Sequence record: MT150133.1
Source of the DNA: Enterobacteria phage vB_EcoM_IME540
Length of the DNA stretch: 64,000 bases
Strand: one strand, 5' to 3'
The notes under the pieces are model-generated. The model saw nothing but the letters and a program-made list of their open reading frames with translations. It made no database searches and was not told the origin of the DNA. The position numbers were made by a program, and so were the translations under genes. Below are positions 1,687 through 21,773 of this stretch, piece by piece (position 1 is the stretch's first letter; each line of letters starts with the position of its first letter).

Positions 1687-1714
1687 TTTGTTCTCCTCAT
1701 TAGTTGATAGGTCT

Positions 1715-1743
1715 ATAGTATCACGTTCCTAGAGGATGTAAAC
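1715..1743 (-). promoter_or_regulatory. sigma70-type early promoter (GTTTAC -17 nt- TGATACTAT)
   Basis: Minus strand reads GTTTACATCCTCTAGGAACGTGATACTATAGACCTATCAAC and contains the conserved 15-mer TACTATAGACCTATC. Confidence 0.7.
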
Positions 1744-1752
1744 ACCTAAACG

Positions 1753-1779
1753 AAAAAAGGTCCCACCGAAGTGAGACCT
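1753..1779 (-). terminator. rho-independent terminator
   Basis: Minus strand AGGTCTCAC-TTCG-GTGGGACCT followed by TTTTTT, directly after the stop of ORF 1784-2167. Confidence 0.75.
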
Positions 1780-1783
1780 TTGA

Positions 1784-2167
1784 TTATTCTAACGTTAGCA
1801 AATACTTAGTCTGGTAAAAGACCCCAGTGATATCGTCCAAAGTCGACTGGATGGCCTTAGGAAGGGTATCATAGATTTTATCAGATGCTTTAAGAAGCTC
1901 GTCAAGAAAATCTACCGGGTCCTTAGGCAAGTCTGAAGCAGACGGTAATGATGCTTTATATTCTTTGCCACTGAACCCGAGATATTGCTCGCTAAATTGG
2001 TCCAGCGGTCCTTGAACTTCTACATAATAGAAGTCATATGCTTTGTGTCTTGCATAGCTTTTGGTTTCTAAATGGGCTGACTTAAAATAGGCTAAAGAAA
2101 CCAGTAGCCAACCAATATAAGAATCCACTTCAGACCCTCGACCGGGTACGAAATCATTGAACTTCAT
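1784..2167 (-). CDS. hypothetical protein (127 aa)
   Basis: Track ORF overlapping the rI stop by 14 nt. Sits where T4 rI.-1 lies (synteny inference only). Confidence 0.6.
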   Translation of the reverse strand: MKFNDFVPGRGSEVDSYIGWLLVSLAYFKSAHLETKSYARHKAYDFYYVEVQGPLDQFSEQYLGFSGKEYKASLPSASDLPKDPVDFLDELLKASDKIYDTLPKAIQSTLDDITGVFYQTKYLLTLE

Positions 2168-2447
2168 CTTCCACCTTCATTAGTTTTGCATAACGCTCTC
2201 CGATGGCGCGACCTTCAATTGAGCACGCTTCTATAGTCCGACAACTTGAAATCTTCCAAGAAGCCGTAACATAGGCCCAATAGTCTTCGGAGGCTTTTAC
2301 GCTGGGTCTACTCATTTGCGCATAAACAGGCATCGCACTACTAGCAAATGCATCCATCAATTTATCGTTGGTACCATTTGCTAGTGAAACTGTAGGGCTT
2401 AAACATCCCGCCATAAGGATACAAGCCGCTGTACGGAAAATATCCAT
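2154..2447 (-). CDS. rI: lysis-inhibition antiholin RI
   Basis: 97 aa, the same length as T4 RI. Has an N-terminal signal-anchor-like segment. The C-terminal part ...SCRTIEACSIEGRAIGERYAKLMKVEDEVQ parallels recalled T4 ...CSSDFECIERGAEMAQSYARIMNIKLETE. Lies next to tk as in T4. Confidence 0.75.
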   Translation of the reverse strand: MDIFRTAACILMAGCLSPTVSLANGTNDKLMDAFASSAMPVYAQMSRPSVKASEDYWAYVTASWKISSCRTIEACSIEGRAIGERYAKLMKVEDEVQ

Positions 2448-2536
2448 ACAAAAGTCCTTTGTTGTTTTATACTATTTGCCTTTCGGCCTTAACCGATAGC
2501 GATTACCAAAAGCTAAAGCTCTACGGTTAGTATTAT

Positions 2537-2544
2537 TATTTATA
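2537..2544 (-). promoter_or_regulatory. candidate late promoter TATAAATA upstream of rI
   Basis: Exact TATAAATA on the minus strand in an ORF-poor gap, 90 nt upstream of the rI ATG. Chance occurrence is possible in AT-rich DNA. Confidence 0.35.
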
Positions 2545-2693
2545 GCTTTTTAAGCTTACGACAATAAGAATAGAACACGTCGTTAAAATTATGCTCAACC
2601 CAATTCCTCTGTATAGGCGAGGTAATGGAAAGCATATAATGCGCTTTAATTAAATCCATCCCATTTTTATTAGGACACTCTTTATTATTAGCA

Positions 2694-2819
2694 TTATACG
2701 TCGCTGCTACAACCTTCTATCTCTCTTTTGTAAGCCACATCATCCATGATAGGCGAAAGAACAATATAAGAAATAGCCACAGCGAACGCTAGAATTAAAA
2801 TCTTTGAATTTAGGTCCAT
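2694..2819 (-). CDS. possible 41-aa membrane peptide
   Basis: MDLNSKILILAFAVAISYIVLSPIMDDVAYKREIEGCSSDV. GAGGG SD lies within the last codons of tk. Has an N-terminal hydrophobic helix. Confidence 0.35.
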   Translation of the reverse strand: MDLNSKILILAFAVAISYIVLSPIMDDVAYKREIEGCSSDV

Positions 2820-2826
2820 AGTACCC

Positions 2827-3399
2827 TCAACTCGTTATTTCTATCCAGTGCTTCCTGCACAATGACACGTAAGAATCGTTGCCACCTATAGAAACTTGGG
2901 CTCCGTCCTTAATTGCGATACCATCTTGGATACGAGCCGTCATAGTAGCTTTACGGCCGCAATGGCACACACCTTTGTACTCAACGAGTTTATCTGCCGT
3001 AGCGAGTAATTCAGCAGAGCCAGGAAACAGTTTACCCTGAAAATCAGTTCTTAGCCCATAACACATAACTGGAACATTATAATTGTCTACTATCTTCGCC
3101 AGTTGTTTTATCTGTGCAGGTTCTAAGAACTGTGCTTCATCCACAAATACACAGTGGATATCTTTTTGAGATTCAGCCCAACGATAGAACTCGTATAGGT
3201 CCATATCCGGAGTCACGGCATTAGCCTCTTGACTAATCCCTATACGAGACGAAATGCTATGGCTTGATTCTCTATTGTCTACCGCGGGCTTTAAAAGGAG
3301 TACGCCCATACCACGTTCTTTGTAGTTATGAGCTGCCGTTAGCAATGAAGCGGTTTTCCCGGAATTCATCGCCGCATAGTGAAACATCAAGCTTGCCAT
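2827..3399 (-). CDS. tk: thymidine kinase
   Basis: 190 aa. P-loop MNSGKTASLL, VFVDEAQF, and a C-terminal Cys cluster CHCGRKAT...SLCRKH. Matches the T4 Tk pattern and position. Confidence 0.92.
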   Translation of the reverse strand: MASLMFHYAAMNSGKTASLLTAAHNYKERGMGVLLLKPAVDNRESSHSISSRIGISQEANAVTPDMDLYEFYRWAESQKDIHCVFVDEAQFLEPAQIKQLAKIVDNYNVPVMCYGLRTDFQGKLFPGSAELLATADKLVEYKGVCHCGRKATMTARIQDGIAIKDGAQVSIGGNDSYVSLCRKHWIEITS

Positions 3400-4124
3400 T
3401 TAAATACAACTCCTCTATAAGAGCAATTAGGATAACCTTTGCTTATAGCTATCTTTTTAAACATATATGCTGAAGGCTTATTGGATTCTTCCCATAAGAG
3501 TTTTAATTCATCGTAAAATTTCCAAGATTCGTTTCTTATAGGAGAAGGTTTTCCTGCCATAGCGCCCTTTTTACCGTACATGGGATTCTTTTTGCCCTTT
3601 TTGGCGTTACTCATATTTTCTATGGTTTCAGCGCTATGTTTAAATCCTTTTAATTTTTTAGAGGCTAATCCTATTTTAGCTTTATGCTCATCACTAAATC
3701 CTATTCTATTGGAATAATGGTTTAAACCTTTATTAGAAGTGGTGAATTTAGAAGCTTCTATTCTGGCTTTGCTCCATTTAACTCCTTTTCTAGACCTAGA
3801 CATTTTCTGTTTAGTTAAATTAGATAATTTGGTTCCTTTCTTTTTACCTCTTCCGCCATCAGCAAAATTTAAAGAATGCTTACCATATTTTAATTTAGCC
3901 TTTTCAACTAAAGGAATTTCGGCGGCATACGCCTCTTCTTCAGATTCGAAGAATTCTAATATACGAGTTTTATAAGGATGCTTTTTACAAATATTTTTAA
4001 CTACCGTACCACTTCCATAATACCCGTCTGAAAGATTATCAGTGGAGTGTTTACCTACATAGTAATAATTTGCCTTATGGGTTTTTATTACAGTCAAGTA
4101 ATTATAATGGAATTCCTTTGCCAT
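3387..4124 (-). CDS. GIY-YIG family homing endonuclease (Seg-like)
   Basis: N-terminal NYLTVIKTHKANYYYVGKHS...GYYGSG (GIY-x10-YIG type). Lys-rich NUMOD-like repeats (SDEHKAKIG..., SAETIENMSNAKKGKKNPMYGKKG). Overlaps the tk start by 13 nt. Confidence 0.75.
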   Translation of the reverse strand: MAKEFHYNYLTVIKTHKANYYYVGKHSTDNLSDGYYGSGTVVKNICKKHPYKTRILEFFESEEEAYAAEIPLVEKAKLKYGKHSLNFADGGRGKKKGTKLSNLTKQKMSRSRKGVKWSKARIEASKFTTSNKGLNHYSNRIGFSDEHKAKIGLASKKLKGFKHSAETIENMSNAKKGKKNPMYGKKGAMAGKPSPIRNESWKFYDELKLLWEESNKPSAYMFKKIAISKGYPNCSYRGVVFKWQA

Positions 4125-4133
4125 ATTACCTTC

Positions 4134-4325
4134 TTAAAGCGTATTCACATAAGCTATTAATTCGTTTTCTTTCTCATCAAATCGATTGACAAATTCTTCC
4201 TGATGTTCGGGAGATAGCGGGCCATATTCATCATAAAAAGAATTTGCTTCTGCATGCTCATCTAGAAGTTCATGGATAAGCTCAAACAATTTATCTTTCT
4301 GTTCTTTACTCAGACTCATAACCAT
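4134..4325 (-). CDS. hypothetical acidic helical protein
   Basis: Track ORF 4134-4340. The likely start is the ATG at 4325 or 4319; the latter forms an ATGA overlap with the upstream stop. Start uncertain. Confidence 0.5.
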   Translation of the reverse strand: MVMSLSKEQKDKLFELIHELLDEHAEANSFYDEYGPLSPEHQEEFVNRFDEKENELIAYVNTL

Positions 4326-4528
4326 TGTACCTTTAAGCAATATTCTTCTACATGCTGCTTACGTTTATTTTTATCTATAAAAGTATATTCAACATATTCA
4401 CCGATATACCATTTATCGGTGTTGTGTTGACTTTTTATAGGGCATTTAGTTACTCGGGTTTCGGACCAGTGTCGAATAATTTCCGCTTTATTTTTAGGGT
4501 CAAACGGATGCGGGTAATGGGCTTTCAT
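4316..4528 (-). CDS. hypothetical protein (70 aa)
   Basis: Track ORF overlapping the 3' end of the macrodomain gene by 29 nt. Confidence 0.5.
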   Translation of the reverse strand: MKAHYPHPFDPKNKAEIIRHWSETRVTKCPIKSQHNTDKWYIGEYVEYTFIDKNKRKQHVEEYCLKVQWL

Positions 4529-4967
4529 AATCTACCACCACTAAATTAATATCAGGAGTAAACAAATTAATCAATTGGTAAACCTTGTCCCAATCACCAC
4601 CAGCAATACCACAACCGATGCGAGGAATATAAATTCTTGGTTTAAACAAAAGACCTTTTGCTTGTTGATTTAATTCTATCATACAGTTTACTAAAGCACC
4701 GTAATCAAGATTAGGGCCTGGTTCGTATTGGGTGTATAAATTATAGCAAATTTGGCCCTTATTACCTGTGGCTTGAGTAAACGTGCCAAGTTTTTCCAAA
4801 TGGCCTAAATAAGTGGTTTTATCGATAGCGAGAATAGGCGGATAAGCCTTAGCCAATTGCCCAGCTACACCTGAACCCATTGTGTGGAAACAGTTACACC
4901 CGTGTGCAACATTATTACCTTGAAGAAATAGGGCGACAATATCGCCCTTAATATAATCAATAATCAT
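4500..4967 (-). CDS. macrodomain protein, TARG1/OARD1-like ADP-ribose binding/hydrolase
   Basis: 155 aa. HGCNCFHTMGSGVAGQLAKAYP and IPRIGCGIAGGDWDKV parallel the recalled human TARG1 motifs H-C-x-x-D-x-x-MGAGIA and PRIGCGLDRLQWENV. Sits where T4 tk.4 lies. Confidence 0.65.
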   Translation of the reverse strand: MIIDYIKGDIVALFLQGNNVAHGCNCFHTMGSGVAGQLAKAYPPILAIDKTTYLGHLEKLGTFTQATGNKGQICYNLYTQYEPGPNLDYGALVNCMIELNQQAKGLLFKPRIYIPRIGCGIAGGDWDKVYQLINLFTPDINLVVVDYESPLPASV

Positions 4968-5320
4968 TTAGAGTTTAATCCTCGATTGTATGAATCAACG
5001 AGTCTGTCTACCATAGACGCGCACATTTCTTTGTACTTTTTATCAGATGGAATACATTCAGTAACGTTTAGACGTTGCTCGTATCTTTTAGAAAGAGTTT
5101 TCTCTTTCATTCGACGATGCTCTACGTCGTTCTGCCCATCTTTAAAAGCAGCCGTGATTTTTGAACTGAATTCGATAATGCATTCAGTATTACTCGGATG
5201 ACAATAATCTTTTGCTGTACGGGTAGCATACTCGACAATTGAATTATTACTATCATAAACTTGTGACGCTAATACTCCCGGAGCAATCAACATAAGCGCT
5301 ATAGTCATCTGCTTAATCAT
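4964..5320 (-). CDS. secreted/periplasmic Cys-containing protein (118 aa)
   Basis: N-terminal signal peptide MIKQMTIALMLIAPGVLASQ and four Cys in the mature part. Sits where T4 vs lies, but identity was not verified. Confidence 0.55.
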   Translation of the reverse strand: MIKQMTIALMLIAPGVLASQVYDSNNSIVEYATRTAKDYCHPSNTECIIEFSSKITAAFKDGQNDVEHRRMKEKTLSKRYEQRLNVTECIPSDKKYKEMCASMVDRLVDSYNRGLNSK

Positions 5321-5884
5321 TTAATATACCGCCTCAAACATCTTTTTAGATTTTAGATAATTGGCCTTTTCTAGAACTTCAGAAGCATATTTACTGCCTG
5401 CTTCGACGTTCCAGCCCGCATTATAAGAAGCAATCGCTTTTCTCAGGTCACCTTTGTGAACATCAATCCAATAAGACAGTTCAATGTAGGCCCAAGAGGC
5501 ACTGTTCTGTCGTTTTTGGACCATACGAATTATTTCTTTGTCTGACATCTTCCAACCTACCTGTTGAACACGACTTCTTAACGTAGGCAAGTAATTTTGG
5601 AACATGCCATAAGCATGGTGCTTATCTTTATTTAAACCCTGATTAATTCCGGCAGATGATTCCTGCCATAGTAATCCGGCCATAATATATCCTAATCCTT
5701 TTTGATTAGGGGTTTCTTTGAACTTTCCCGACTTTTGGTATTGTTCACCGAAAGCATACGCATAATGTAAATTATCGAGCTGGGTTTCTGTAAATACGGG
5801 TTCTGCTGCACTTACAGAAAACGAACCACACATAATAGCCGCTATTAAAGAATATTTAAGTTTTTTTAGAAAAATCATAATCAA
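5321..5884 (-). CDS. secreted soluble lytic transglycosylase (SLT domain)
   Basis: Signal peptide ...CGSFSVSAAEP. All three SLT motifs are present: LLWQESSAG (catalytic E-S), YGMFQ and ASYNAGWN. Confidence 0.7.
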   Translation of the reverse strand: MIMIFLKKLKYSLIAAIMCGSFSVSAAEPVFTETQLDNLHYAYAFGEQYQKSGKFKETPNQKGLGYIMAGLLWQESSAGINQGLNKDKHHAYGMFQNYLPTLRSRVQQVGWKMSDKEIIRMVQKRQNSASWAYIELSYWIDVHKGDLRKAIASYNAGWNVEAGSKYASEVLEKANYLKSKKMFEAVY

Positions 5885-6590
5885 TAAGTCCTCGGTAATC
5901 TACATTAGGGAAGCCGTTCTTAATTGCGATTTTACTAAATCTTCCACACTTGAGCTTATTATTATCTACCCATAATTTATATAATTGTGAATACATCGGT
6001 TCATGCCATATAGGGGATTTACGCAAAGAGGCTTTTTTCCTTTCTATAGTTTCTTTAGAATTTTGTATGGCTTTAAATTTTTGTCTATTTTCAGGATTTT
6101 CAAAATACTTAACCCGTTTTTCAGACATTTTAGCTTTTACTTTTGGCGAATTTAAAATTTCTTTGAGCCGTTCTTTAGAGCCTTCCTTTTCAAAATACTT
6201 TATTAAAGCCATTGAATGAGCAGCCCTATTTTCCTTTTTAGAGAAAAATAAAATTTTATTAATAGATTGCAATTTTGAAAATGATTCTTTAGCCAACTTA
6301 TAATTTTCAGAATCTACAAAATAAGACCTTTGTTTTGAATTTGAAGTAGAGCTCATATTTAACCAGGCAAAATTCAACCCATAGTGGTTTGGATTAGCTT
6401 TGGCTAGATACATATGGGCCAAATAATGTTCATCAGCATAAAGCTCAACTAAATTGTCTTGAGTGTCAGGACCACCAACACAACTCGGAATTATATGATG
6501 CTTTTCTGTATAGGCGTCATTAGGTGTATCCCTAGATAAGGCCGCATTTATTATTTTATAGTAGTCATATGGATATTTTATAGTTTCCAT
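5856..6590 (-). CDS. HNH family homing endonuclease
   Basis: N-terminal EKHHIIPSCVGGPDTQDNLVELYADEHYLAHM (HNH core), a basic repeat region, and a C-terminal module shared with the GIY-YIG ORF 3387-4124. Inserted between the SLT gene and regB. Confidence 0.75.
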   Translation of the reverse strand: METIKYPYDYYKIINAALSRDTPNDAYTEKHHIIPSCVGGPDTQDNLVELYADEHYLAHMYLAKANPNHYGLNFAWLNMSSTSNSKQRSYFVDSENYKLAKESFSKLQSINKILFFSKKENRAAHSMALIKYFEKEGSKERLKEILNSPKVKAKMSEKRVKYFENPENRQKFKAIQNSKETIERKKASLRKSPIWHEPMYSQLYKLWVDNNKLKCGRFSKIAIKNGFPNVDYRGLIDYDFSKKT

Positions 6591-6597
6591 ACTGTCC

Positions 6598-7056
6598 TCA
6601 CAAGTAAATTACTTTCGTGCTGGTTTTACCTTCTAAACGTTTAGAGTTAACAAATGCCATACGACATTTAAGGGAATATCCTTTATCAGGATGTTTACGG
6701 TCTACTGTCATACCTAGCCATAAGGTTTTATCGGTAATTTCGAGACGCAATGGCCGATACACTTTACCAGGGACAATTTCGGATTCTACATCAGGCAGAG
6801 GTTCCTGGATTAAGAATTCATGGATTTCTTTAACATGGTTATGGAGTTGCTTGAATAAAGCAAAAACGTATTTTTCGTCGATTTCACGTTGGATAGCACG
6901 GTCCAACAAGTGGTTAGAGTACTTAATAAAGAAGGCTGGGACTCCGCTCTTAATGGCGGCTTTTTTGATGGACGTATTCAGTTCACGGAATTCGGTTTCG
7001 AACTGACGACGTAATTTATTGCGGCGGATGAATACTTCTGAATTAATTTCTGACAT
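6598..7056 (-). CDS. regB: RegB site-specific endoribonuclease
   Basis: 152 aa. MSEINSEVFIRRNKLRRQFETEF...LLDRAIQREIDEKYVF...YRPLRLEITDKTLWLG matches recalled T4 RegB (153 aa) throughout. Confidence 0.9.
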   Translation of the reverse strand: MSEINSEVFIRRNKLRRQFETEFRELNTSIKKAAIKSGVPAFFIKYSNHLLDRAIQREIDEKYVFALFKQLHNHVKEIHEFLIQEPLPDVESEIVPGKVYRPLRLEITDKTLWLGMTVDRKHPDKGYSLKCRMAFVNSKRLEGKTSTKVIYL

Positions 7057-7063
7057 TTTGTAA

Positions 7064-7106
7064 TCTCCTGTAGTTGATAGGTCTATAGTACCACGTCTAC
7101 AGGAGA
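7064..7106 (-). promoter_or_regulatory. 10-bp inverted repeat pairing the promoter spacer with the regB Shine-Dalgarno
   Basis: Minus strand TCTCCTGTAG (just after the -35) ... CTACAGGAGA (SD, 7 nt before the ATG). The loop holds the -10 and the start site. Confidence 0.7.
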
Positions 7107-7113
7107 TGTAAAC
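7085..7113 (-). promoter_or_regulatory. early promoter (GTTTAC -17 nt- TGGTACTAT)
   Basis: GTTTACATCTCCTGTAGACGTGGTACTATAGACCTATCAAC upstream of regB, with the conserved 15-mer. Confidence 0.75.
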
Positions 7114-7117
7114 TGCT

Positions 7118-7327
7118 TTATTCTTGGAATGGGGTAAGTTTTCCAGCAGCTGAACAAATTTCTACCAGTACAGGGTAAAACTCTTTCACTTGTTCAAGGC
7201 GTTGGGCTGCATACTGTACTTCACCTTCTTCGAGACAAGCCATTTGGTCGTCAAGCAAGTATTTGTGGTAGCCAGTACAGGCTTCACCGATGATACGCTG
7301 GAAATCTTGTAAACTTTCAATTTTCAT
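7118..7327 (-). CDS. hypothetical protein (69 aa)
   Basis: Track ORF trimmed to the ATG at 7327, which forms an ATGA overlap with the upstream stop. Confidence 0.55.
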   Translation of the reverse strand: MKIESLQDFQRIIGEACTGYHKYLLDDQMACLEEGEVQYAAQRLEQVKEFYPVLVEICSAAGKLTPFQE

Positions 7328-7605
7328 CAGTATTTTTCCTCGGGTTGGAAAACGGAACGACACGCCCACATACTTGCTTCTTTCAGACGGTCAATTGCAT
7401 TACGAATCTGGGTGATGCGTTCATGAGCCTGGTCTAGTTCTTGTTCAGAAACCTCTTCGGTATCTAAGTTCATATAATGAGTAACATGTTCTTCTTCCAG
7501 AGCTTTAAACATTAACCCAAGACGAACTTCAGCATCTTTGATAGCGTTTACTTTACCGATTTTATCGTCGGTATGCGGCTTATAACCCTTGATATCTTCA
7601 ATCAT
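7327..7605 (-). CDS. hypothetical protein (92 aa)
   Basis: Track ORF in translationally coupled packing. Confidence 0.55.
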   Translation of the reverse strand: MIEDIKGYKPHTDDKIGKVNAIKDAEVRLGLMFKALEEEHVTHYMNLDTEEVSEQELDQAHERITQIRNAIDRLKEASMWACRSVFQPEEKY

Positions 7606-7820
7606 TTCACTTCCTCGCCAGTTGCGATATCATATTCTACCAAACGAAGGCCTTCAGTCCAACCTTGCACGGAGATATAGGTAGTCGGGTAAATCATTTC
7701 TTTACCATTCCACCGACCGCCATCCCAGACTTCCAGAAAGTCTTGTTCACCTGGTCCATTAAGCCATTCAACAAATCTTTTCAGAGCTTCTTCAGAACCT
7801 TCAATTGTCAATTTAGACAT
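7602..7820 (-). CDS. hypothetical protein (72 aa)
   Basis: Track ORF with 4-nt overlaps on both sides. Confidence 0.55.
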   Translation of the reverse strand: MSKLTIEGSEEALKRFVEWLNGPGEQDFLEVWDGGRWNGKEMIYPTTYISVQGWTEGLRLVEYDIATGEEVK

Positions 7821-8109
7821 ATTTTTTCCAATCAGAAATCATATGAATCTCTTGGTCATAAGTCAAGAGACTACGAGCAATAATACCCTTACAAGGCCCT
7901 GAGATGAACTCGAGAGTGAAGTAAGGAACCTGTTTCATTAATCGGATACTAGGAGCATGACATCTAAAACGAGAGCCCTTAAAGGGCCCTGTCATGAATA
8001 CATATTCCAATGGGTAGAAATAAGCATATTCGAAATTTGCAGTAAGGTCCTCTCTTCGAACCTTACGTGAGAAATAACAGAACTCAAAAAGTTCTTCATC
8101 AGTCATCAT
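7813..8109 (-). CDS. hypothetical protein (98 aa)
   Basis: Track ORF trimmed to ATG 8109 (AGGAA SD; ATGATGA overlap with the upstream stop). Confidence 0.55.
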   Translation of the reverse strand: MMTDEELFEFCYFSRKVRREDLTANFEYAYFYPLEYVFMTGPFKGSRFRCHAPSIRLMKQVPYFTLEFISGPCKGIIARSLLTYDQEIHMISDWKKYV

Positions 8110-8633
8110 TGCATTCCTATCACAAAGAACAGAGGCAAAGGCTTGTCGCCTTGGCACATAAATTTATTAATCATTACCTGGTAAGCTTCATAGAACTTAT
8201 CCATCGCTGGAAGGCGCATTGGCTCTTCGATAATAATCAATAATCGAGTAACAGATAGTCCACGATACTTATGGAAATTGTCTTCATCAAGGAAACTGCG
8301 CACAGTATCATAGACAACAAAACCAGGACCTTCGACTTGGAGATGTGGGTGTGCCTTAGAAACCTGTTTTATTACATTACAAATTTCTCGCGAGCGATGC
8401 GAAGAACTCGACATAACAATCACATCATTACCCTTGGAAACCCAATCAGCGGCGAACTGAGCAAGGGCACTTGTTTTACCTGTTTGGCGTCCGCCATCAA
8501 GTCGAAGAGTACCAAACTCTTGCATTCTTGAAGCAGGTTCATACCATGTGTATTGGTCTGAGTCTAAACGTTCAATGGCGCGTTCAGCGAAGGCGTGCAT
8601 TAAGGTTAGATAAATGGGAGTTAAAAATTTCAT
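8106..8633 (-). CDS. P-loop NTPase-like protein (175 aa)
   Basis: Walker A GGRQTGKTS and a Walker B-like RLLIIIEEP. Confidence 0.55.
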   Translation of the reverse strand: MKFLTPIYLTLMHAFAERAIERLDSDQYTWYEPASRMQEFGTLRLDGGRQTGKTSALAQFAADWVSKGNDVIVMSSSSHRSREICNVIKQVSKAHPHLQVEGPGFVVYDTVRSFLDEDNFHKYRGLSVTRLLIIIEEPMRLPAMDKFYEAYQVMINKFMCQGDKPLPLFFVIGMQ

Positions 8634-8668
8634 AGTAGTCTCTTAGTGGTGGGGCCATTCCTTGGCAC

Positions 8669-8697
8669 ATAATTCGTCCATGTATCCGTATGTAAAC
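8669..8697 (-). promoter_or_regulatory. candidate early promoter (GTTTAC -17 nt- AATTAT)
   Basis: Minus strand GTTTACATACGGATACATGGACGAATTAT, 36 nt upstream of ATG 8633. The -10 is weak. Confidence 0.4.
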
Positions 8698-8793
8698 CCT
8701 TTACCGCACTTGGGCTCGACCTTATTACAGGTAGGGAAAGGTCCATCACTCAGAGGACGCGACGTTCATGAGGAGAGGGCCGGCTTGCCTTTA

Positions 8794-9093: not shown

Positions 9094-9118
9094 TGTTATT
9101 CCTTAAGTTGATAGAAGT

Positions 9119-9148
9119 ATTCTATCACGGATTTAATTAAGCGTAAAT
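9119..9148 (-). promoter_or_regulatory. candidate early promoter (ATTTAC -18 nt- TGATAGAAT)
   Basis: Extended -10 TGATAGAAT lies 26 nt upstream of the IP ATG. The -35 lies in the last codons of denV. Confidence 0.4.
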
Positions 9149-9553: not shown

Positions 9554-9559
9554 TTTTTA

Positions 9560-14375: not shown

Positions 14376-14405
14376 AAGTCCTCCTACCACATCCATGTGG
14401 TTAAA

Positions 14406-14633: not shown

Positions 14634-14851
14634 GAGCTCGGATACCAGATTTTACCATCGGCCTGAGCAACGAAGGTGCGTCCAGCTTCTTCACCATAAC
14701 AAGAGCTATTCAGCCAATCTTCGAGACGAACTTCACCGTCATAATCGTCGAGCTCAACACCAAAACTTTGAGCAGAAGCCATATCTTTTACTTTCTTATA
14801 CAGTGCAGCCAGTTCAAGTGCGGCTTTTTCTAATTCATTAATATCAGTCAT
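14627..14851 (-). CDS. C-terminal-Cys paralogue 1 (74 aa)
   Basis: Track ORF trimmed to ATG 14851 (AAGGTGA SD). MTDINELEKAALELAALYKK...EDWLNSSCYGEE...GKIWYPSSC-stop. Confidence 0.6.
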   Translation of the reverse strand: MTDINELEKAALELAALYKKVKDMASAQSFGVELDDYDGEVRLEDWLNSSCYGEEAGRTFVAQADGKIWYPSSC

Positions 14852-14861
14852 TTTTATCACC

Positions 14862-15074
14862 TTAGCAAGACATAGAGGATGTAAACCAGAAACCTTCACC
14901 ATCTGGGATACCGTAATCATCACGGGCCCATTCATAATCATCATATTCCGGATTCTTTGGAGAAATGTATTGTCCACGACCAGAAACATGGAACTCTTCA
15001 CCCGTTTCGTCAGCCACGGCCTGGCCTTTACGTACTAATTCGCGGATTTGTTTTTCAATTTCATCAATAGTCAT
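14862..15074 (-). CDS. C-terminal-Cys paralogue 2 (70 aa)
   Basis: MTIDEIEKQIRELVRKG...GEGFWFTSSMSC-stop. Confidence 0.6.
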   Translation of the reverse strand: MTIDEIEKQIRELVRKGQAVADETGEEFHVSGRGQYISPKNPEYDDYEWARDDYGIPDGEGFWFTSSMSC

Positions 15075-15083
15075 TTTATTTCC

Positions 15084-15365
15084 TTAACATTCAGAAGAAG
15101 AGGACACCCAACCGCCATTTTCTAGGCTGGTGGTGTAATCATGCTGGTTTACAATAGCATACTGGGCTTCACCGTATTCTTCCCAGTGGGCAAGGTCGGC
15201 TTTCAAGGCGCCAGGAGAATAATAGTCACCGCCCATACCGCGAGCAGGGTATATATTAAAATGAGTCTCATATTTGTTAGCAATTTCCTCGGCACGACGA
15301 ATAGCTTTATGGATATCATTTACTGCGTCAGCCAGCTCTTTATTTTTACGGTAATCATTCATCAT
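15084..15365 (-). CDS. C-terminal-Cys paralogue 3 (93 aa)
   Basis: AAGGAA SD. ...DIHKAIRRAEEIANKY...GMGGDYYSPG...NGGWVSSSSEC-stop. Confidence 0.6.
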   Translation of the reverse strand: MMNDYRKNKELADAVNDIHKAIRRAEEIANKYETHFNIYPARGMGGDYYSPGALKADLAHWEEYGEAQYAIVNQHDYTTSLENGGWVSSSSEC

Positions 15366-15374
15366 AGCGTTTCC

Positions 15375-15665
15375 TTAGCACATTGCCGAAGAGGAGACCC
15401 AAGCACCAACTGTAACGACACCGTTTTCAACTTCACCGCCATTGTTTTCAATTTCATCTTTAAACCATTGGGAGCATTCATAACCGACAGGATAATATGT
15501 ACGGCCTGAACCATAACCACCGGTACTGAATTCAATACCATATTCATCTGCGATTTCTTCACATTTGGATTCGATGGTGCCTACTTTACCCAGCAGGTCA
15601 TAGATAGCCTTTTCTGCGGACAGCGCGCTGTTGTATTCAGGGATTTCAATTTCAATTTTATTCAT
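15375..15665 (-). CDS. C-terminal-Cys paralogue 4 (96 aa)
   Basis: ATGA overlap with the upstream gene. ...AEKAIYDLLGKV...GGYGSGRTYYPVG...VGAWVSSSAMC-stop. Confidence 0.6.
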   Translation of the reverse strand: MNKIEIEIPEYNSALSAEKAIYDLLGKVGTIESKCEEIADEYGIEFSTGGYGSGRTYYPVGYECSQWFKDEIENNGGEVENGVVTVGAWVSSSAMC

Positions 15666-16015
15666 GATTTACATTCCTTAATAAAGGTTTCAAGGTCATT
15701 ACGTTTAGTTTGTTTTACATACTCATTATAATTAACCATAGCTAAAGCATATCTCTTTTTACGCGGCTTGTTTATTTTATTAGTTTGGGCAATATCAAAG
15801 ACCCATGGGATAAAAAATCCTATTAAAGCCGGAACCCAAATCCATGCAAGGCTCATATCTTCAAACGGATGGCGAGGCATACCATTAATAATCCCACCGA
15901 CAAGAAATCCAATTATCCCTGCAGTCATACTAGTAGCAATGCCGAGGAATAAGGAAATAGCTATATCATAATCTGCTAATGCGTAACCAGGGTCGGTTTT
16001 ACTAGGCTTATGCAT
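15662..16015 (-). CDS. membrane protein (117 aa, about 3 TM helices)
   Basis: Trimmed to ATG 16015 (MHKPSKTDPG...). Hydrophobic segments IAISLFLGIATSMTAGIIGFLVGGII and LAWIWVPALIGFFIPWVF. Tail KRNDLETFIKECKS. Confidence 0.6.
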   Translation of the reverse strand: MHKPSKTDPGYALADYDIAISLFLGIATSMTAGIIGFLVGGIINGMPRHPFEDMSLAWIWVPALIGFFIPWVFDIAQTNKINKPRKKRYALAMVNYNEYVKQTKRNDLETFIKECKS

Positions 16016-16544
16016 TTTGAACCTCTTTAGCGTATTCGCGACATTCAGTAATAAAACGATTAAGTTTACGTTGTTGTTTACGAATCTCTGATGTATACTC
16101 ATTGGCTAAAATAATAAGCTCATCTTTATCGTAATTTTTAATATCCGAATAACTCGGGCGGCGGTCGACCATACCAAAGTGGTCACCATTTTCTAACATC
16201 AAATAGCATACTAAATGGTAATCATCGTCGGCATCAACAAGCTGTTTATAATCGCTTGGTTCATTTAAAGAGTATACTGAATAGCGTAGCCCAGCGAATT
16301 CCACTCGTTGAATAGCCAGATTTACGTCAATAATTTCTAAAGCATCTGCAAAAGAAAGGTCCTCAGCTAAAGCAAAGATAAAGGGTAATTTGGTAGTATG
16401 CCCACGGCTAGATGTTCTGCTTAAGAAATCGTTTGAATAACCTAGGTCTTGGCGAATTCTATAAAGAACTGCATTAGTTTCATGTGAAAGACCACTATGT
16501 TTAAACCAATCAATATTTGATATCAGGTCGTCGTATAAACTCAT
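16008..16544 (-). CDS. hypothetical protein (178 aa)
   Basis: Track ORF with GGAGGAGAGGAG SD. The C-terminal region contains RKLNRFITECREY. Confidence 0.6.
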   Translation of the reverse strand: MSLYDDLISNIDWFKHSGLSHETNAVLYRIRQDLGYSNDFLSRTSSRGHTTKLPFIFALAEDLSFADALEIIDVNLAIQRVEFAGLRYSVYSLNEPSDYKQLVDADDDYHLVCYLMLENGDHFGMVDRRPSYSDIKNYDKDELIILANEYTSEIRKQQRKLNRFITECREYAKEVQNA

Positions 16545-16567
16545 AATATTCTCCTCTCCTCCAAATA

Positions 16568-16585
16568 GGGAGACCGAAGTCTCCC
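16568..16585 (-). promoter_or_regulatory. intergenic hairpin GGGAGAC-TTCG-GTCTCCC
   Basis: Perfect 7-bp stem with a TTCG loop between ORFs 16593-17186 and 16008-16544. The same 18-mer forms the gene 23 terminator at 56603-56620. Confidence 0.55.
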
Positions 16586-16592
16586 GGTAACA

Positions 16593-17186
16593 TTACTTAA
16601 GTGAATTAATGTAGTCTTCGATATCAGCAGAAGTCGTATCCATTCCAACTTGCGGGCCTTTAAACGTTTCTACGCGCATCAGGGTGTCTTCGATATCAAT
16701 CTTGGTCAGTGCAGCAATTTCAACAACATCGTCGGCAGTAGCAATACCAAGGGCAGCCATATTACGAGTTTCACGGATGTACTCGAGCTTAACAGCCAGT
16801 TCCTGACGAGAGTCATCAAGTTCCTTAACCTTCAGTTTAATTTCATTACGCATTTCGATATAATCATCGGCTTTCTTACGAAGCTGAGTAGCTGTACGAC
16901 GATAAAGGAGACCGAGTTTAGCATGTACCTGGACATCAGAGCCTTCGGCAATCAGTTTACGAATTTCACGTTCTTTAGAAGCAGCGAGCTGGTCTTTTTC
17001 ATTAGCCAAAGCACGAATACGTTTTTCTTCATTCACAGACTTAACATGAGCAGTCTGGAGTTCAGTGATTTTATCAATCAGAGTAGAAGCAGCTTTGGTG
17101 TATTGGTCTTCGATTGACAGGTTCTGAGCCATTGCGGTGCCCAGTTTAGAACGAATGAATTCAACGATTTTCTTTAAAGTGTTCAT
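16593..17186 (-). CDS. coiled-coil protein, PspA/IM30-like (197 aa)
   Basis: Trimmed to ATG 17186 (AAGGAA SD), because the track 5' extension covers promoter 17230-17259. Long heptad-rich helices; the layout (IEDQ..., [17 protein letters not shown]..., [28 protein letters not shown]) resembles PspA. Pattern-level call only. Confidence 0.4.
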
Positions 17187-17229
17187 AGTATTTCCTTCAG
17201 TTGGTTGATATTTTGTAATCCATGAGGAC

Positions 17230-17259
17230 ATTATACCCTGTCCTCTGAGGTTTGTAAAC
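17230..17259 (-). promoter_or_regulatory. early promoter (GTTTAC -18 nt- TATAAT) with inverted repeat around the -10
   Basis: Minus strand GTTTACAAACCTCAGAGGACAGGGTATAATGTCCTC. The arms GAGGAC/GTCCTC bracket the -10. Confidence 0.7.
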
Positions 17260-17262
17260 ATT

Positions 17263-17661
17263 TTATTTCATTTTTGCGAGGCAGATTTCATTGGCTTCCC
17301 ATTGAGCTTGCTTAATAATAGCTTTGGATACAGGAGCCCTTTGCCCATAAGTTTTTGACGTTGAGAGAACAATACATTTGTTTGCTTCATTATGCCAGCC
17401 CCATGATTTTTCGCCATGAGTACCTTTAACTACAGCTGACACCTCAACAGAGCAACCGCCATCAGAAATCTTGGTTTCGACAACCCATTCATTTCTCTCA
17501 GCAGCTTCAATTTCTAATCTAGTTTTTTCTTCATACATCGCGGCCCAATCAGTTTTTGCCAAGTTGAAAGTAAGAGCTTTCTCTAATTCTTTGGCATATT
17601 TTTGTTGTTCAGGTGTTAATGAATTATACAACTCTTGCATTTCTTTATCTTCGATATTCAT
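17263..17661 (-). CDS. hypothetical protein (132 aa)
   Basis: Track ORF with GAGGAG SD, behind promoter 17687-17716. Confidence 0.6.
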
Positions 17662-17686
17662 TATGTTCTCCTCAAATTATGGGCTC

Positions 17687-17716
17687 ATAATATCTTAATC
17701 ATGAGCCCATGTAAAC
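17687..17716 (-). promoter_or_regulatory. early promoter (GTTTAC -18 nt- TATTAT) with 10-bp inverted repeat
   Basis: Minus strand GTTTAC-ATGGGCTCAT-GATTAAGATATT-ATGAGCCCAT. Arms lie at 17679-17688 and 17701-17710. Confidence 0.65.
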
Positions 17717-17719
17717 GTT

Positions 17720-17983
17720 TTATTTCATATTATTGAAATAATTTTCTGCATCAAAATCATTACCATGGTAAACTTTGGTAGACGATTTGGCGTAACCTTC
17801 AGCTGAGAACATATTAATCACAACTTTAATTGTATACCACTGTCCATCTTCATTACCCATTACTGCATAGGTTTCATACACCGGGTGTTCAGGACCGATA
17901 ACCTTAATATCGTTAACTGTGGCACCAAATTCTTCCGGAACGCATTTCATAAAGAAATTAAACACTTCACCATAATTATCCAT
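17720..17983 (-). CDS. hypothetical protein (87 aa)
   Basis: Track ORF starts at a GTG; trimmed to ATG 17983, which is preceded by GGAGAGTAAA. Confidence 0.55.
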   Translation of the reverse strand: MDNYGEVFNFFMKCVPEEFGATVNDIKVIGPEHPVYETYAVMGNEDGQWYTIKVVINMFSAEGYAKSSTKVYHGNDFDAENYFNNMK

Positions 17984-18018
17984 TTTACTCTCCTTCACTC
18001 TGTTGTTTTGATAGGTCT

Positions 18019-18047
18019 ATAGTATCATGTTTAAAGGAGGTGTAAAC
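18019..18047 (-). promoter_or_regulatory. early promoter (GTTTAC -17 nt- TGATACTAT)
   Basis: Conserved 15-mer present. The spacer CCTCCTT is complementary to the downstream SD AAGGAG. Confidence 0.7.
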
Positions 18048-18068
18048 ATCTTTTTTAAACTTTTAGAA

Positions 18069-18098
18069 ACAAAAAAGGCCCAACCTTTCGGAAGGGCC
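18069..18098 (-). terminator. rho-independent terminator (copy 1 of a 30-nt direct repeat)
   Basis: Minus strand GGCCCTTCC-GAAA-GGTTGGGCC followed by TTTTTTG, after the stop of ORF 18104-18658. Identical 30-mer at 18692-18721. Confidence 0.75.
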
Positions 18099-19032: not shown

Positions 19033-19698
19033 TCAAAATTTTATTTTACGGCCTTTATTCCAACCTTCAGGAATAATATCCGTTTTGTTAATACGTTTAG
19101 AAACTTTTTCTTCTAAAGAATGAATCCACATTTTTCCATATCCGGAATTATTTTCACCTTGTTGGTGTTTATTTCTGGCGTGAGATTCTTTCATTTTATT
19201 TTTGGTTTCATCTGAATGGGTCTTACCCAAGAAAGATTTAGTATTTGAAAATTTCTCTCTATACTTAGGATTATCCCAAAGTTGTTTAAACCTTTCCGAA
19301 CCCATTTTACGATATTTTTCTTTAAGGTCTGGGTCGTTCTCAAATCTGGTTTTAAAAGCGGCAACTCCTTTTAAGGAAGCTTCTTTCTTTTTATCTAAAT
19401 ATTCTTCAGTGTTTAAATGGTCCCAACCACCTTCACCACCTAATTTCAAATTATAAACATCAGGGCGCTTTAAAAACTCTTCAGTCACAATATTCTTTTC
19501 TGACTCAAACATAGAGGTTTTATCGTCAAAGAACTCTAATATTTCTTTAGAGAAATTTTCTATACCGTATTTGACCTGGGCCCTTTTTAAGAGTTTACCA
19601 GAACCAAAATATGCATCATTCAAATTTTCGGTTGAATGGGCGCCTATATAGATTTTATTATTAATTTTGTTTGTTATTTTATAAGTGTAATGGAACAT
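19033..19698 (-). CDS. segB: GIY-YIG homing endonuclease, SegB-like
   Basis: 221 aa. MFHYTYKITNKINNKIYIGAHST...FGSGK (GIY-YIG) plus NUMOD-like basic repeats. Sits between tRNA genes, as T4 segB does. Confidence 0.75.
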   Translation of the reverse strand: MFHYTYKITNKINNKIYIGAHSTENLNDAYFGSGKLLKRAQVKYGIENFSKEILEFFDDKTSMFESEKNIVTEEFLKRPDVYNLKLGGEGGWDHLNTEEYLDKKKEASLKGVAAFKTRFENDPDLKEKYRKMGSERFKQLWDNPKYREKFSNTKSFLGKTHSDETKNKMKESHARNKHQQGENNSGYGKMWIHSLEEKVSKRINKTDIIPEGWNKGRKIKF

Positions 19699-20194: not shown

Positions 20195-20219
20195 ATAATA
20201 ACACATTACTCTTAAAGCA
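20195..20219 (-). promoter_or_regulatory. middle (MotA-dependent) promoter: MotA box TGCTTTA -12 nt- TATTAT
   Basis: Minus strand ATATGCTTTAAGAGTAATGTGTTATTAT in the intergenic gap upstream of ORF 19816-20082 and the tRNA cluster. Confidence 0.6.
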
Positions 20220-20256
20220 TATTACTATTTTTAGGAATAGTCTGGTCAAATTTGAT

Positions 20257-20547
20257 TCATTGTGGCCACATATTAATGTAATCAAGTTTAATAGAAGCAA
20301 TCTTCAAAGGATTTTTAAAGATGTCGTATTCGATCAATCCGTTTTCAGTTGCGGTGTAGAAAGTAAAGTTAACAGAATTATAACGGCGACCATTAACTTT
20401 TAGTTTAACGTCGCTTGAACTACGACCAATATTAACCTGTTGGACATCAAGCACAGCACCTTTGCCAAAGTTGCGAATCAGTAGCTCTGCTGCAACCTGG
20501 TCTGAATTATAGCCATTCTCTGGATTAGTAACCTTAACGTATAGCAT
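20257..20547 (-). CDS. hypothetical protein (96 aa)
   Basis: Track ORF, abutting ORF 20548-20955. Confidence 0.55.
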   Translation of the reverse strand: MLYVKVTNPENGYNSDQVAAELLIRNFGKGAVLDVQQVNIGRSSSDVKLKVNGRRYNSVNFTFYTATENGLIEYDIFKNPLKIASIKLDYINMWPQ

Positions 20548-20955
20548 TTAACCCTCGTCTACAATAGTATGGGTATTAGCATTAACAATCTGCCACCAGT
20601 CACAGTCAAAACGATTAGAACCGTAACGAGGCTTTTTCTCATTTTCGTTAATAATATCACGTAGTTCGTCTTCAGAAAATGCTTTAGCGATTAAATCGGT
20701 ATAGCCGCCACGTGGATAATAGTTATCACCTGCGAACAGAAGGAAATTTACTTTACCAGAAGGAACATATGCTTCCTTAGGATACTTGTTTCCTGCTTGG
20801 TCTACCACTTCAATATAACGGTAAGGAATATCGGTACTTTCAACCCATTGCCAAGCTGCAGCAGGGGATTCAAAAGCATCTACACCTAAACGGTTATCTT
20901 CATCTTTAGACGGATTATTTTCATAATCCGCATATACATAATATTCAATGTTCAT
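20548..20955 (-). CDS. hypothetical protein (135 aa)
   Basis: Track ORF. No family recognised. Confidence 0.55.
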   Translation of the reverse strand: MNIEYYVYADYENNPSKDEDNRLGVDAFESPAAAWQWVESTDIPYRYIEVVDQAGNKYPKEAYVPSGKVNFLLFAGDNYYPRGGYTDLIAKAFSEDELRDIINENEKKPRYGSNRFDCDWWQIVNANTHTIVDEG

Positions 20956-21140
20956 TATTCACCTTTAGAGATTTTATCCATAACGAAAGAAATTGAACCA
21001 ATTAAGAATGCCACTACTAAAGAGATTATATTCTCGGAAGTTGAAAGCATATCGAGCATGAATCCTGCAAACATACTAAAGCCAAAAGCAGTAACAGCGG
21101 CCAGTGCAGTAACATTTCTAATTAATTCACAAGGTTTCAT
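20955..21140 (-). CDS. small membrane protein (61 aa)
   Basis: Trimmed to ATG 21140 (GGAGAATAAA leader identical to the one at 12705). Two hydrophobic helices. Confidence 0.55.
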   Translation of the reverse strand: MKPCELIRNVTALAAVTAFGFSMFAGFMLDMLSTSENIISLVVAFLIGSISFVMDKISKGE

Positions 21141-21176
21141 TTTATTCTCCAATCACTCATTTGTTTTGATAGGGCT

Positions 21177-21206
21177 ATAGTACCATCACTAAAGCCCGTT
21201 GTAAAC
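21177..21206 (-). promoter_or_regulatory. early promoter (GTTTAC -18 nt- TGGTACTAT), variant 15-mer
   Basis: Minus strand GTTTACAACGGGCTTTAGTGATGGTACTATAGCCCTATCAAAAC. Short inverted repeat GGGCT/AGCCC. Confidence 0.6.
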
Positions 21207-21208
21207 AA

Positions 21209-21481
21209 TTATTTTAAATAAATTGCATATTTTTTATAACCAGCCGTCTCGTGGCGCAGCCCTTTTTCATTAGCAAAACGTTCAATATTGTTAATTTGAT
21301 TCTGGTCGAGTTCTGAAGTATCAAATACAAAAAAGTTTCGCTTATTGCCTAAAGTTACGTGATTAGTCAAATCGATGTTATAGAGATGATTTATATTATC
21401 AATCATGGTCTTAACAGATTTGTTAATTTTTACTTCTTCATTAAGAATAGATTCAGCGATAAATTCTTGGTATGATTTCAT
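21209..21481 (-). CDS. internal head protein (IP) with capsid-targeting sequence
   Basis: MKSYQEFIAE|SIL... 90 aa. Starts 1 nt after the stop of the upstream IP gene. Confidence 0.7.
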   Translation of the reverse strand: MKSYQEFIAESILNEEVKINKSVKTMIDNINHLYNIDLTNHVTLGNKRNFFVFDTSELDQNQINNIERFANEKGLRHETAGYKKYAIYLK

Positions 21482-21482
21482 T

Positions 21483-21707
21483 TTATTCAGCGCCAGCAGC
21501 TTTCAAAAGTTTTTTAAGATTGGCTATGCCGCCAGCAGAAAACGTGACCTTGCCACCTTTTTCATTGATAGAGCCAGTCAATTTAGCAAGCTTATCACTA
21601 GGGACTTTTTTAAAATCAGCCAGTGTGCCATCAAAGGTTTTTGTAACAATTGGCAGTTCATCTTCATGTCTTTTAGCTTCGGTGATAAATTCTTGATAAG
21701 TTTTCAT
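21483..21707 (-). CDS. internal head protein (IP) with capsid-targeting sequence
   Basis: MKTYQEFITE|AKRHEDE... 74 aa. Sits where T4 ipI lies, next to 57B. Confidence 0.7.
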   Translation of the reverse strand: MKTYQEFITEAKRHEDELPIVTKTFDGTLADFKKVPSDKLAKLTGSINEKGGKVTFSAGGIANLKKLLKAAGAE

Positions 21708-21744
21708 TTTGATTTCCGTTTGGTTAGTTTGTTTTGATAGGTCT

Positions 21745-21773
21745 ATAGTATCATGCCTATAGACCTTGTAAAC
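21745..21773 (-). promoter_or_regulatory. early promoter (GTTTAC -17 nt- TGATACTAT) with 10-bp palindrome
   Basis: Minus strand GTTTACA-AGGTCTATAG-GCATGATA-CTATAGACCT-ATCAAAAC. Arms lie at 21739-21748 and 21757-21766. Confidence 0.7.

Follow-up and report, generated by a model that had tools for sequence, protein, structure and literature searches.

Early promoters of a JS98-like phage and the inverted repeats nested in them

The DNA considered here is a stretch of 64,000 nucleotides (the window) from Enterobacteria phage vB_EcoM_IME540 (MT150133.1), a JS98-like phage of the genus Dhakavirus. Synteny with MX01 and T4 identifies its positions 1-22,000 as the mobD-rI-tk-vs-regB-denV-ip-e-nudE-e.x-tRNA-ip hyperplastic region, in which transcription is leftward. 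A block of 15 nucleotides is repeated in the window together with inverted repeats around the -10 hexamer of putative promoters, and an earlier note, made from the sequence alone, had taken the two for promoter-early stem-loop (PeSL) cassettes. According to the reading that we hold with moderate confidence, the block is the core of sigma70 early promoters, the inverted repeats nested in it form RNA hairpins only in read-through transcripts, and the shared sequences act as short homologies for the gain, loss and swapping of genes.

The repeated block as the core of early promoters

The 15-mer, GATAGGTCTATAGTA on the plus strand, occurs exactly at 1706, 7076, 9573, 12734, 18010, 21736 and 56923, and a copy with one mismatch, GATAGGGCTATAGTA on the same strand, is found at 21168. 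All of these had been listed in the earlier note, where 9572 should read 9573. The eight matches at no more than two mismatches compare with 0.23 expected, and none of 100 dinucleotide shuffles gave eight. Read on the minus strand, every copy has the layout that the note described: GTTTAC (GTGTAC at 12734), 17-18 nucleotides, TGn and then TACTATAGACCTATC, that is, GTTTAC-N17/18-TGn-TACTAT-AGACCT-ATC, followed in all eight copies by a Shine-Dalgarno (SD) sequence and ATG 25-37 nucleotides further downstream. The leader that several copies were said to share is similar but only approximately so (ATCAAAACAACAGAGTGAAATGGAGAATAAAATG, ...AGAGTGAAGGAGAGTAAAATG and ...AAATGAGTGATTGGAGAATAAAATG).

A scan with the T4 early-promoter pattern found 12 good promoters in the window, all on the minus strand, eight of which carry the 15-mer or its variant; they are named below by position. 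The remaining four fit the -35/-10 layout, two of them (17692 and 17235) without the TG. A generic sigma70 scan was uninformative (63 sites against 58 expected from shuffles), and the T4-type pattern needed an explicit search. The 25 nucleotides upstream of the -35 hexamer have an AT fraction of 0.52-0.92, at least 0.72 in eight of the 12 promoters and only 0.52-0.60 at 7090 and 1720. Sequence layout, AT-rich upstream region and location before early genes are all those of T4-type sigma70 early promoters. The T4 promoters of denV, regB, nrdC.8, ipI and trna.4 occupy the same positions as their counterparts in the window, and like these they precede early genes and point in the direction of those genes. 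The T4 denV promoter, GTTTACatctcctgtaggtatgaTACTATAGACCTATCaactacaggag, is identical to the denV promoter of the window in the 15-mer, the spacer arm, the SD arm and the leader. The repeat thus represents the core of early promoters of the ordinary T4 type, and promoter layout and T4 synteny bear out the earlier view of a repeated early-promoter cassette in a T4-type hyperplastic region.

Transcription from a sigma70 promoter usually starts about 7 nucleotides after the -10 hexamer. By this geometry the nine nucleotides after TACTAT, which had been assigned to the transcribed region, would for the most part be discriminator, AGACCT (-6 to -1), followed by the start ATC (+1 to +3). A block nnCTATC(A) is common to T4, RB69 and all the Dhakavirus relatives, and within the syntenic region each lineage has its dominant discriminator: AGACCT in the window (seven times), ACAACT in T4 (three to four times) and AGTCCT in RB69 (four to six times), all ending in CTATC. 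Conservation thus exceeds what sigma70 needs, as had been proposed, in a family-wide CTATC(A) block and a lineage-specific discriminator. The family-wide block agrees with the statement of Hinton 2010 (PMC2988021) that T4 early promoters have, besides the sigma70 elements, "additional regions of consensus". Judged by sequence comparison, the 15-mer is the lineage-dominant allele of a Tevenvirinae-wide consensus, TAyTAT-nnnnCT-ATC. The copies would be kept identical partly by function (the -10 and the start-site CTATCA) and also by cassettes exchanging parts through recombination.

The promoters resemble the T4 early promoters of the UP/GTTTAC/TGn "uber" type in the -35, the spacing, the extended -10, the AT-rich upstream DNA and the early genes served. 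The T4 syntenic 50 kb hold 13-15 early promoters of this pattern, but AGACCT, which has spread to seven or eight copies in the window, occurs there once. A scan of IMG/VR yielded 72 different promoter instances in which the 15-mer is exact, in genomes of about 170 kb, several of which have at least a dozen copies each. Matches in IMG/VR outside T4-like genomes were single copies within open reading frames (ORFs) and were dismissed as chance. At four loci on IMG/VR metagenome contigs (L033, L054, L090 and L068) the 15-mer stands between a -35-like hexamer, ATGTAC, and aaaacaagaggag-ATG; their appearance is that of early promoters from a T4-like group that is less closely related but has the -10/discriminator block in common. 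On the plus strand, at 12718-12747 and 17994-18023, the reverse complement of the 15-mer offers a good -10 (TATAGT) and the leader ...AGAGTGAA offers TTCACT 18 nucleotides upstream of it. An antisense promoter directed into the upstream gene is possible at both sites, or the match may merely follow from the CTATAG palindrome.

Inverted repeats nested in the promoters

The 5' arm of the inverted repeats lies in all cases inside the spacer between the -35 and -10 hexamers, and two classes are distinguished by its partner. In class A (promoters 12748, 21750, 21182, 17692 and 17235) a spacer segment pairs with the last 2-4 nucleotides of the -10 and the discriminator. In class B a spacer segment pairs with the SD region; the arms are ATCTCCTGTAG/CTACAGGAGAT at 9587 and 7090 and CCTCCTT/AAGGAGAG at 18024, and the pairing is weaker at 1720, 56937 and 60959. 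When the complementarity of each spacer to the downstream sequence was compared with 1000 shuffles per spacer, ten of the 12 window promoters had p<0.07 and six p<=0.002, with a mean z of -3.2. The same test gave p<=0.002 for 6 of 13 promoters in T4 (mean z -2.6) and for 5 of 16 in RB69 (mean z -2.1). The coordinates of the four inverted repeats given in the earlier note (12737-12764, 21739-21766, 17679-17710 and 17224-17245) are all correct. The note missed the second kind of repeat, in which the spacer faces the SD (for example at 9560-9604 and 7063-7107). Class A hairpins were considered as intrinsic terminators and ruled out because no T-run follows them.

The promoters and adjacent hairpins are listed below; all are on the minus strand, and a cassette extends from the -35 hexamer through the ATG.

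1684-1743: promoter 1720 cassette; 15-mer at 1706-1720; weak class B repeat CCTC/GAGG, z=-2.1; precedes the ORF 1450-1686.
1756-1781: intrinsic terminator hairpin with T-run, directly upstream of promoter 1720; a true PeSL-type arrangement.
7054-7113: regB promoter 7090 cassette; 15-mer at 7076-7090; class B, z=-4.9, p=0.001; arms ATCTCCTGTAG at 7097-7107 in the spacer and CTACAGGAGAT at 7063-7073, which is the SD.
9091-9148: promoter 9124 of an internal-protein gene; ATTTAC-N18-TGa-TAGAAT, without the 15-mer; no significant inverted repeat, z=+0.4.
9551-9610: denV promoter 9587 cassette; 15-mer at 9573-9587; class B arms at 9594-9604 and 9560-9570, z=-5.7.
12703-12771: promoter 12748 cassette; -35 GTGTAC; 15-mer at 12734-12748; class A repeat AGGTCTATAG-N8-CTATAGACCT at 12737-12764, z=-4.8.
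17184-17259: e.6 promoter 17235; -10 TATAAT, without the 15-mer; class A repeat GAGGAC-N10-GTCCTC at 17224-17245, z=-2.7.
17659-17716: promoter 17692; -10 TATTAT, without the 15-mer; class A repeat ATGGGCTCAT-N12-ATGAGCCCAT at 17679-17710, z=-5.9.
17981-18047: e.8 promoter 18024 cassette; 15-mer at 18010-18024; class B, z=-2.5; arms CCTCCTT in the spacer and AAGGAGAG, which is the SD, at about 17988-17995.
18070-18098: terminator-like hairpin with T-run (PeSL-type), upstream of promoter 18024; breakpoints of relatives at 18053-18098.
21150-21206: trna.4 promoter 21182; variant block TACTATAGCCCTATC at 21168-21182; class A arms GGGCTTTAG/CTATAGCCC at 21172-21197, z=-1.7.
21705-21773: promoter 21750 cassette of an internal-protein gene; 15-mer at 21736-21750; class A repeat AGGTCTATAG-N8-CTATAGACCT at 21739-21766, z=-5.7.
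56893-56961: promoter 56937 cassette; 15-mer at 56923-56937; drives the ORF 56636-56895 (phrog_6003, function unknown) between g23 and g24.
60922-60983: promoter 60959; -10 TAAGAT, without the 15-mer; before a small ORF downstream of hoc; weak inverted repeat, z=-0.4.
About 61008-61025: terminator hairpin preceding promoter 60959.

The arm sequences vary by promoter and by genus, and the geometry is kept in the window, T4 and RB69. At the orthologous regB promoters the arms are TTTTCCTCTTgAC/GTTAAGAGGAGAA in T4, TTCTCCTCTAGTTG/CAACTAGAGGAGAA in RB69 and ATCTCCTGTAG/CTACAGGAGAT in the window. The orthologous trna.4 arms are ATAGGGT/ACCCTAT in T4 and GGGCTTTAG/CTATAGCCC in the window, the latter with a compensatory change of T:A to G:C relative to GGTC/GACC. 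At the ipI position T4 has GATGAGGTA/TACCTCATC and the window AGGTCTATAG/CTATAGACCT. Three doubly compensated variants, CTCCTGTAG/CTACAGGAG, CTCCAGTAG/CTACTGGAG and CTCCATTAG/CTAATGGAG, are found among the class B promoters of Dhakavirus.

Class B covariation was scored in an ungapped alignment of 31 promoters with a leader starting AACTA. The helix is paired in 74% of cells; sliding the partner by 1-3 columns lowers this to 33-51%, and the covariation score from 0.28 to 0.06-0.14. Both sides have changed in 35 cells against 6-17 after sliding, and none of 500 shuffles matches the observed values. Spacers are also more complementary to their own leaders than to those of permuted pairs (z=-7.3). 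Promoters with a nested hairpin are conserved, with covariation, in three genera.

Breakpoints and promoter cassettes

The first 22 kb align with MX01, ABTNLS3, IME08, AnYang and JS10 at 91-95% identity, but these relatives cover merely 45-82% of the query, so that the region is highly mosaic. Breakpoints were mapped between window positions 1-24,000 and the five relatives with a stricter alignment extension, as permissive gap penalties merge indels. Of 53 unique indel or replacement breakpoints, 13 lie no more than 20 nucleotides from a promoter core, where 4.6% were expected (p=7e-7). Among the intergenic junctions, nine of the ten that have a promoter are hit by a breakpoint, as are 17 of the 42 others (p=0.005). 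The comparison of gain and loss breakpoints with cassettes that the earlier note had called for thus gives an enrichment, and some of the joints lie inside shared sequence.

Individual joints are informative. The denV cassette of the window (9551-9610) combines the upstream half of the MX01 ipIII promoter, through GTTTACATCTCCT, with a T4-like denV -10 and leader; ipII and ipIII are missing between them, and it is because of their absence from the window that the upstream half equals that of the ipIII promoter. In JS10, which lacks e.8, the crossover joins two successive leaders at their SD (GGAGA), and IME08 has an additional ORF between direct repeats of about 20 nucleotides of leader and SD. 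Dhakavirus CLB_P2 lacks the ORF between g23 and g24; its joint lies within the 15-mer (TACTATAG joined to ACCTATC), and an orphan promoter is left. In the IMG/VR set one gene stands behind different spacer modules, one leader precedes unrelated ORFs, and a chimeric promoter (L111) has mismatched spacer and leader arms joined at the 15-mer. Shared promoter, leader and SD sequences would serve as short homologies for gene gain, loss and swap, a PeSL-like behaviour.

The ORF at 56.9 kb, on the opposite strand between g23 and g24, had been presented in the earlier note as an early gene that a cassette delivered into the late cluster. Since 112 phage records cover at least 80% of the query, and the ORF is absent from CLB_P2 with the joint in the 15-mer, such delivery is plausible, although it did not happen recently in this phage. 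The orphan promoter of CLB_P2 (locus L128; GTTTAC...TACTATAG) points into a bidirectional terminator hairpin, GGGAGACTTCGGTCTCCC, downstream of g23. The region of the ORF (56560-57030) is 100% identical to phage Bp7, with which positions 1-18027 share about 95% identity over 65% coverage; the genome is therefore a mosaic of segments with differing kinship. On the plus strand next to this ORF the capsid vertex protein gp24 is encoded by two tandem paralogues, 57004-58287 (427 aa) and 58287-59567 (426 aa).

The largest indels relative to the relatives are homing-endonuclease-like ORFs (phrog_314, phrog_655) on the minus strand at 3387-4124, 5856-6590 and 19033-19698, which lie between tk and tk.2, vs.1 and regB, and tRNA-Arg and tRNA-Met. 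They are window-specific or polymorphic and have no flanking promoter cassettes. The internal-protein targeting peptide MK(T/S)Y(Q/N)EFI(T/A)E opens four minus-strand genes (8794-9093, 9611-10009, 21209-21481 and 21483-21707), two or three of which are served by the early promoters described here. In ABTNLS3 a 186-nucleotide deletion (window 21487-21674) joins the repeated targeting-peptide sequences of two tandem internal-protein genes with an overlap of 41 nucleotides, so that this coding repeat is a recombination substrate too. At 15077-15111, where there is no promoter, four of the five relatives have a 172-nucleotide insertion, and the 35-nucleotide overlap of the alignment ends points to a short direct repeat at the joint.

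PeSLs have been described for RB49/phi1, PST/T4 and nt-1/KVP40 (Arbiol 2010, PMC2839356; Comeau 2014, PMC4122927). The window shares with them a repeated composite early-promoter motif, strong and with an AT-rich upstream region, that ends in an SD and start codon, and its concentration in hyperplastic regions beside small ORFs, where it is linked to indels and replacements between close relatives. In the published description, however, the stem-loop is a terminator located immediately before the AT-rich/-35 part (PMC2839356; PMC4122927, Fig. 3 legend). An upstream hairpin with a T-run is present at only three of the 12 window promoters (1720, 18024 and 60959), which in this respect are like PeSLs; elsewhere the -35 directly adjoins the upstream stop codon, and it is the -10 that the repeat spans. 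These repeats differ from copy to copy and have no T-run. As the published stem-loop lies upstream of the promoter, the repeats around the -10 are not PeSL stem-loops, and of the earlier PeSL reading the part that stands is the enrichment of cassettes at breakpoints. The elements of the T-even internal-protein loci, as far as they are described in a citing paper, are T4 early promoters with weak AT-rich stem-loops (Repoila 1994, cited in PMC2839356); going by that description, the internal-protein genes of the window that stand behind early promoters are a parallel. By membership the cassettes are T4-type early promoters; they are PeSL-like in genome shuffling, and their nested hairpin is best compared with the masking hairpins of T4 genes e and soc.

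Proposed hairpins in read-through RNA

Since the 5' arm lies in the spacer, RNA started at the promoter itself would lack this arm and, in class A, both arms. The hairpin is therefore possible only in RNA from an upstream promoter, or in DNA. Three observations suggest, without being decisive, that it acts as RNA rather than DNA: structure is kept and not sequence, some variants pair only through G-U, and the sense strand is the more stable. The G-U variants are GGTCTgTAG, GGTCTATgG and CTCCgGTAG, the last a class B arm of Dhakavirus that faces CTACTGGAG. The T4 regB and nrdC.8 hairpins likewise keep their pairing only through G-U, and their sense fold exceeds the antisense fold in stability by 7 kcal/mol. 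Of 30 stable hairpins of the three genomes, 24 are more stable in the sense strand, and the sense helices have 32 G-U pairs against 17 in antisense. Within the window alone the helices are nearly all Watson-Crick, and sense and antisense energies there do not discriminate between RNA and DNA; G-U information comes only from the relatives, T4 and RB69.

The 3' arm covers the SD or AUG in class B (7090, 9587, 18024, 1720 and 56937) and not in class A (12748, 17235, 17692, 21182 and 21750). In partition-function folding the predicted unpaired fraction from SD to AUG in read-through and own RNA of class B was 0.33/0.59, 0.44/0.64, 0.27/0.82 (promoter 18024), 0.15/0.76 (promoter 1720) and 0.32/0.67, whereas class A gave no difference (0.76/0.79 and 0.72/0.78). 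There is indirect evidence for read-through: between promoters 12748 and 9587 the minus strand has only one weak terminator-like site, at 10217-10205, with 5 pairs.

These features can be assembled into a mechanism. Transcription from the promoter itself would start downstream of the 5' arm, and both arms would coexist only in read-through RNA. In class B the hairpin would bury the SD, which is the GGAG target of RegB, in the read-through RNA, and the gene would be translated, and later inactivated by RegB at the GGAG, only on its own short early transcript. In class A a lone hairpin would stand at the end of the upstream cistron; with low confidence it may be taken for a 3'-end barrier or insulator that replaces the separate stem-loop of PeSLs.

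Class B would be the early-promoter counterpart of a known arrangement. In T4, genes e, soc, 49 and I-TevI have masking hairpins with an internal late promoter, and RNA structure can shield GGAG from RegB (Uzan & Miller 2010, PMC3014915). In both systems the 5' arm lies upstream of the start of the proximal promoter (as placed here by sigma70 geometry), the 3' arm covers the SD, and masking is predicted for long transcripts but not for short ones. They differ in that the internal promoter of the T4 genes is late, so that masking delays expression, whereas in the window it is early, its own spacer is the 5' arm, and masking would confine translation to its own early transcript. Class A, in which the SD is not involved, differs from the T4 hairpins in this as well. 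A promoter-nested hairpin with covariation is not mentioned in the two T4 reviews consulted, a scope that does not take in the older primary T4 literature (e.g. Liebig & Rueger 1989). It is conceivable, and we put it forward tentatively, that T4-like early promoters are routinely "self-insulating", the spacer doubling as the 5' arm of a read-through hairpin (translational and RegB confinement in class B, capping in class A), as a genome-wide rule in at least Tequatrovirus, Mosigvirus and Dhakavirus.

Several points weigh against the proposed reading as a whole. Two of the 12 window promoters, 9124 and 60959, have no significant repeat. The class A hairpins do not touch the SD, and their function is a guess. 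The nrdC.8 spacer is class A in RB69 and class B in Dhakavirus and T4, so that the selected property may be any hairpin across the -10 and not SD masking. In Dhakavirus the counts of G-U versus A-C are small (6 versus 1 in class B, 5 versus 4 in class A), and the base composition of the coding strand may bias the comparison of sense with antisense. A strong repeat (z<-3) is found at none of six terminator-preceded promoters and at 18 of 38 others, which fits the logic of read-through, but the threshold of this contrast, which gives a p of about 0.03, is post hoc, and a rank test gives p=0.12. As the compared promoters share descent and duplication, the p-values are optimistic and the independence is overstated. 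Forty of the 53 breakpoints lie away from the cassettes, at the three homing-endonuclease ORFs, the tRNA cluster and other junctions. Finally, templated quasi-palindrome correction is known in T4 and could match arm changes without selection.

This last process belongs to a broader alternative, in which nothing beyond the promoter is functional: recent duplication among promoter copies, gene conversion and quasi-palindrome correction would have left behind both the identity of the 15-mer and the repeats as by-products. One dominant discriminator block per genus is what concerted evolution would produce, and chimeric cassettes do exist. This explanation is nevertheless rather unlikely: the geometry recurs in three genera with different arms at orthologous genes, the 3' arm of class B falls consistently on the SD, the terminator-preceded promoters have no strong repeats, and own spacer-leader pairs beat permuted ones despite a module swapping that should erode the match.

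Under a strict PeSL model the repeat would be a DNA-level recombination signal, a cruciform or hairpin for a recombination or junction-cutting enzyme that mobilises promoter and ORF modules, for example as mini-circles, and the RNA hairpin would be incidental. The enrichment of breakpoints at cassettes, the joints inside the 15-mer, spacer or SD, and the varied combination of spacer and leader modules before the same gene agree with such a signal, and the PeSL authors speculated that the stem-loop might be a protein target (PMC2839356). We consider the model unlikely. In the published cassettes the stem-loop precedes the promoter instead of spanning the -10 (PMC4122927, Fig. 3 legend), most breakpoints are elsewhere, and the joints fall at short direct homologies (GGAGA of the SD, the leader repeat of about 20 nucleotides, the -35 with ATCTCCT) and not at the loop of the hairpin or the base of its stem. 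In several arm variants the pairing is G-U only, which in DNA is a mismatch, and class B arms target the SD specifically, for which a DNA signal gives no reason. Very unlikely is an operator at which a dimeric phage or host protein, such as the palindrome-binding factor that the earlier note suggested looking for, switches the early promoters off: early-promoter shut-off is indeed not explained by ModA or AsiA (Hinton 2010, PMC2988021) and a perfect palindrome, AGGTCTATAG-N8-CTATAGACCT, overlaps the -10, but a sequence-specific factor is argued against by arms that are unrelated between promoters (AGGTCTATAG, ATGGGCTCAT, GAGGAC, T4 GATGAGGTA and GTTGACAAGATT) and co-vary, the loop ranges from 8 to 23 nucleotides, half of the promoters have the SD, about 30 nucleotides away, as the partner arm, and structure is kept rather than sequence, which marks a nucleic-acid helix and not a site bound by protein.

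The finding is largely known biology, that of T4 early promoters and PeSL-type shuffling, to which the nested hairpin adds an under-described variant of T4 translational masking. For annotation, the repeat is no new element but the core of the early promoters of a JS98-like phage, and the assignment of the stem-loop is corrected. Gene loss, gain and promoter swaps at the sequence level support modular shuffling in a fourth T4-like lineage, in which most breakpoints are located at homing endonucleases and other junctions. The spacer of T4-type early promoters, usually held to be non-informative, appears in three genera to be selected for complementarity to the SD or the discriminator. If the read-through hairpins are real, the masking principle of genes e and soc, known from a few late genes, would apply to many early genes as well, and there would be a reason for early genes to retain their own promoter even where a strong one lies upstream.

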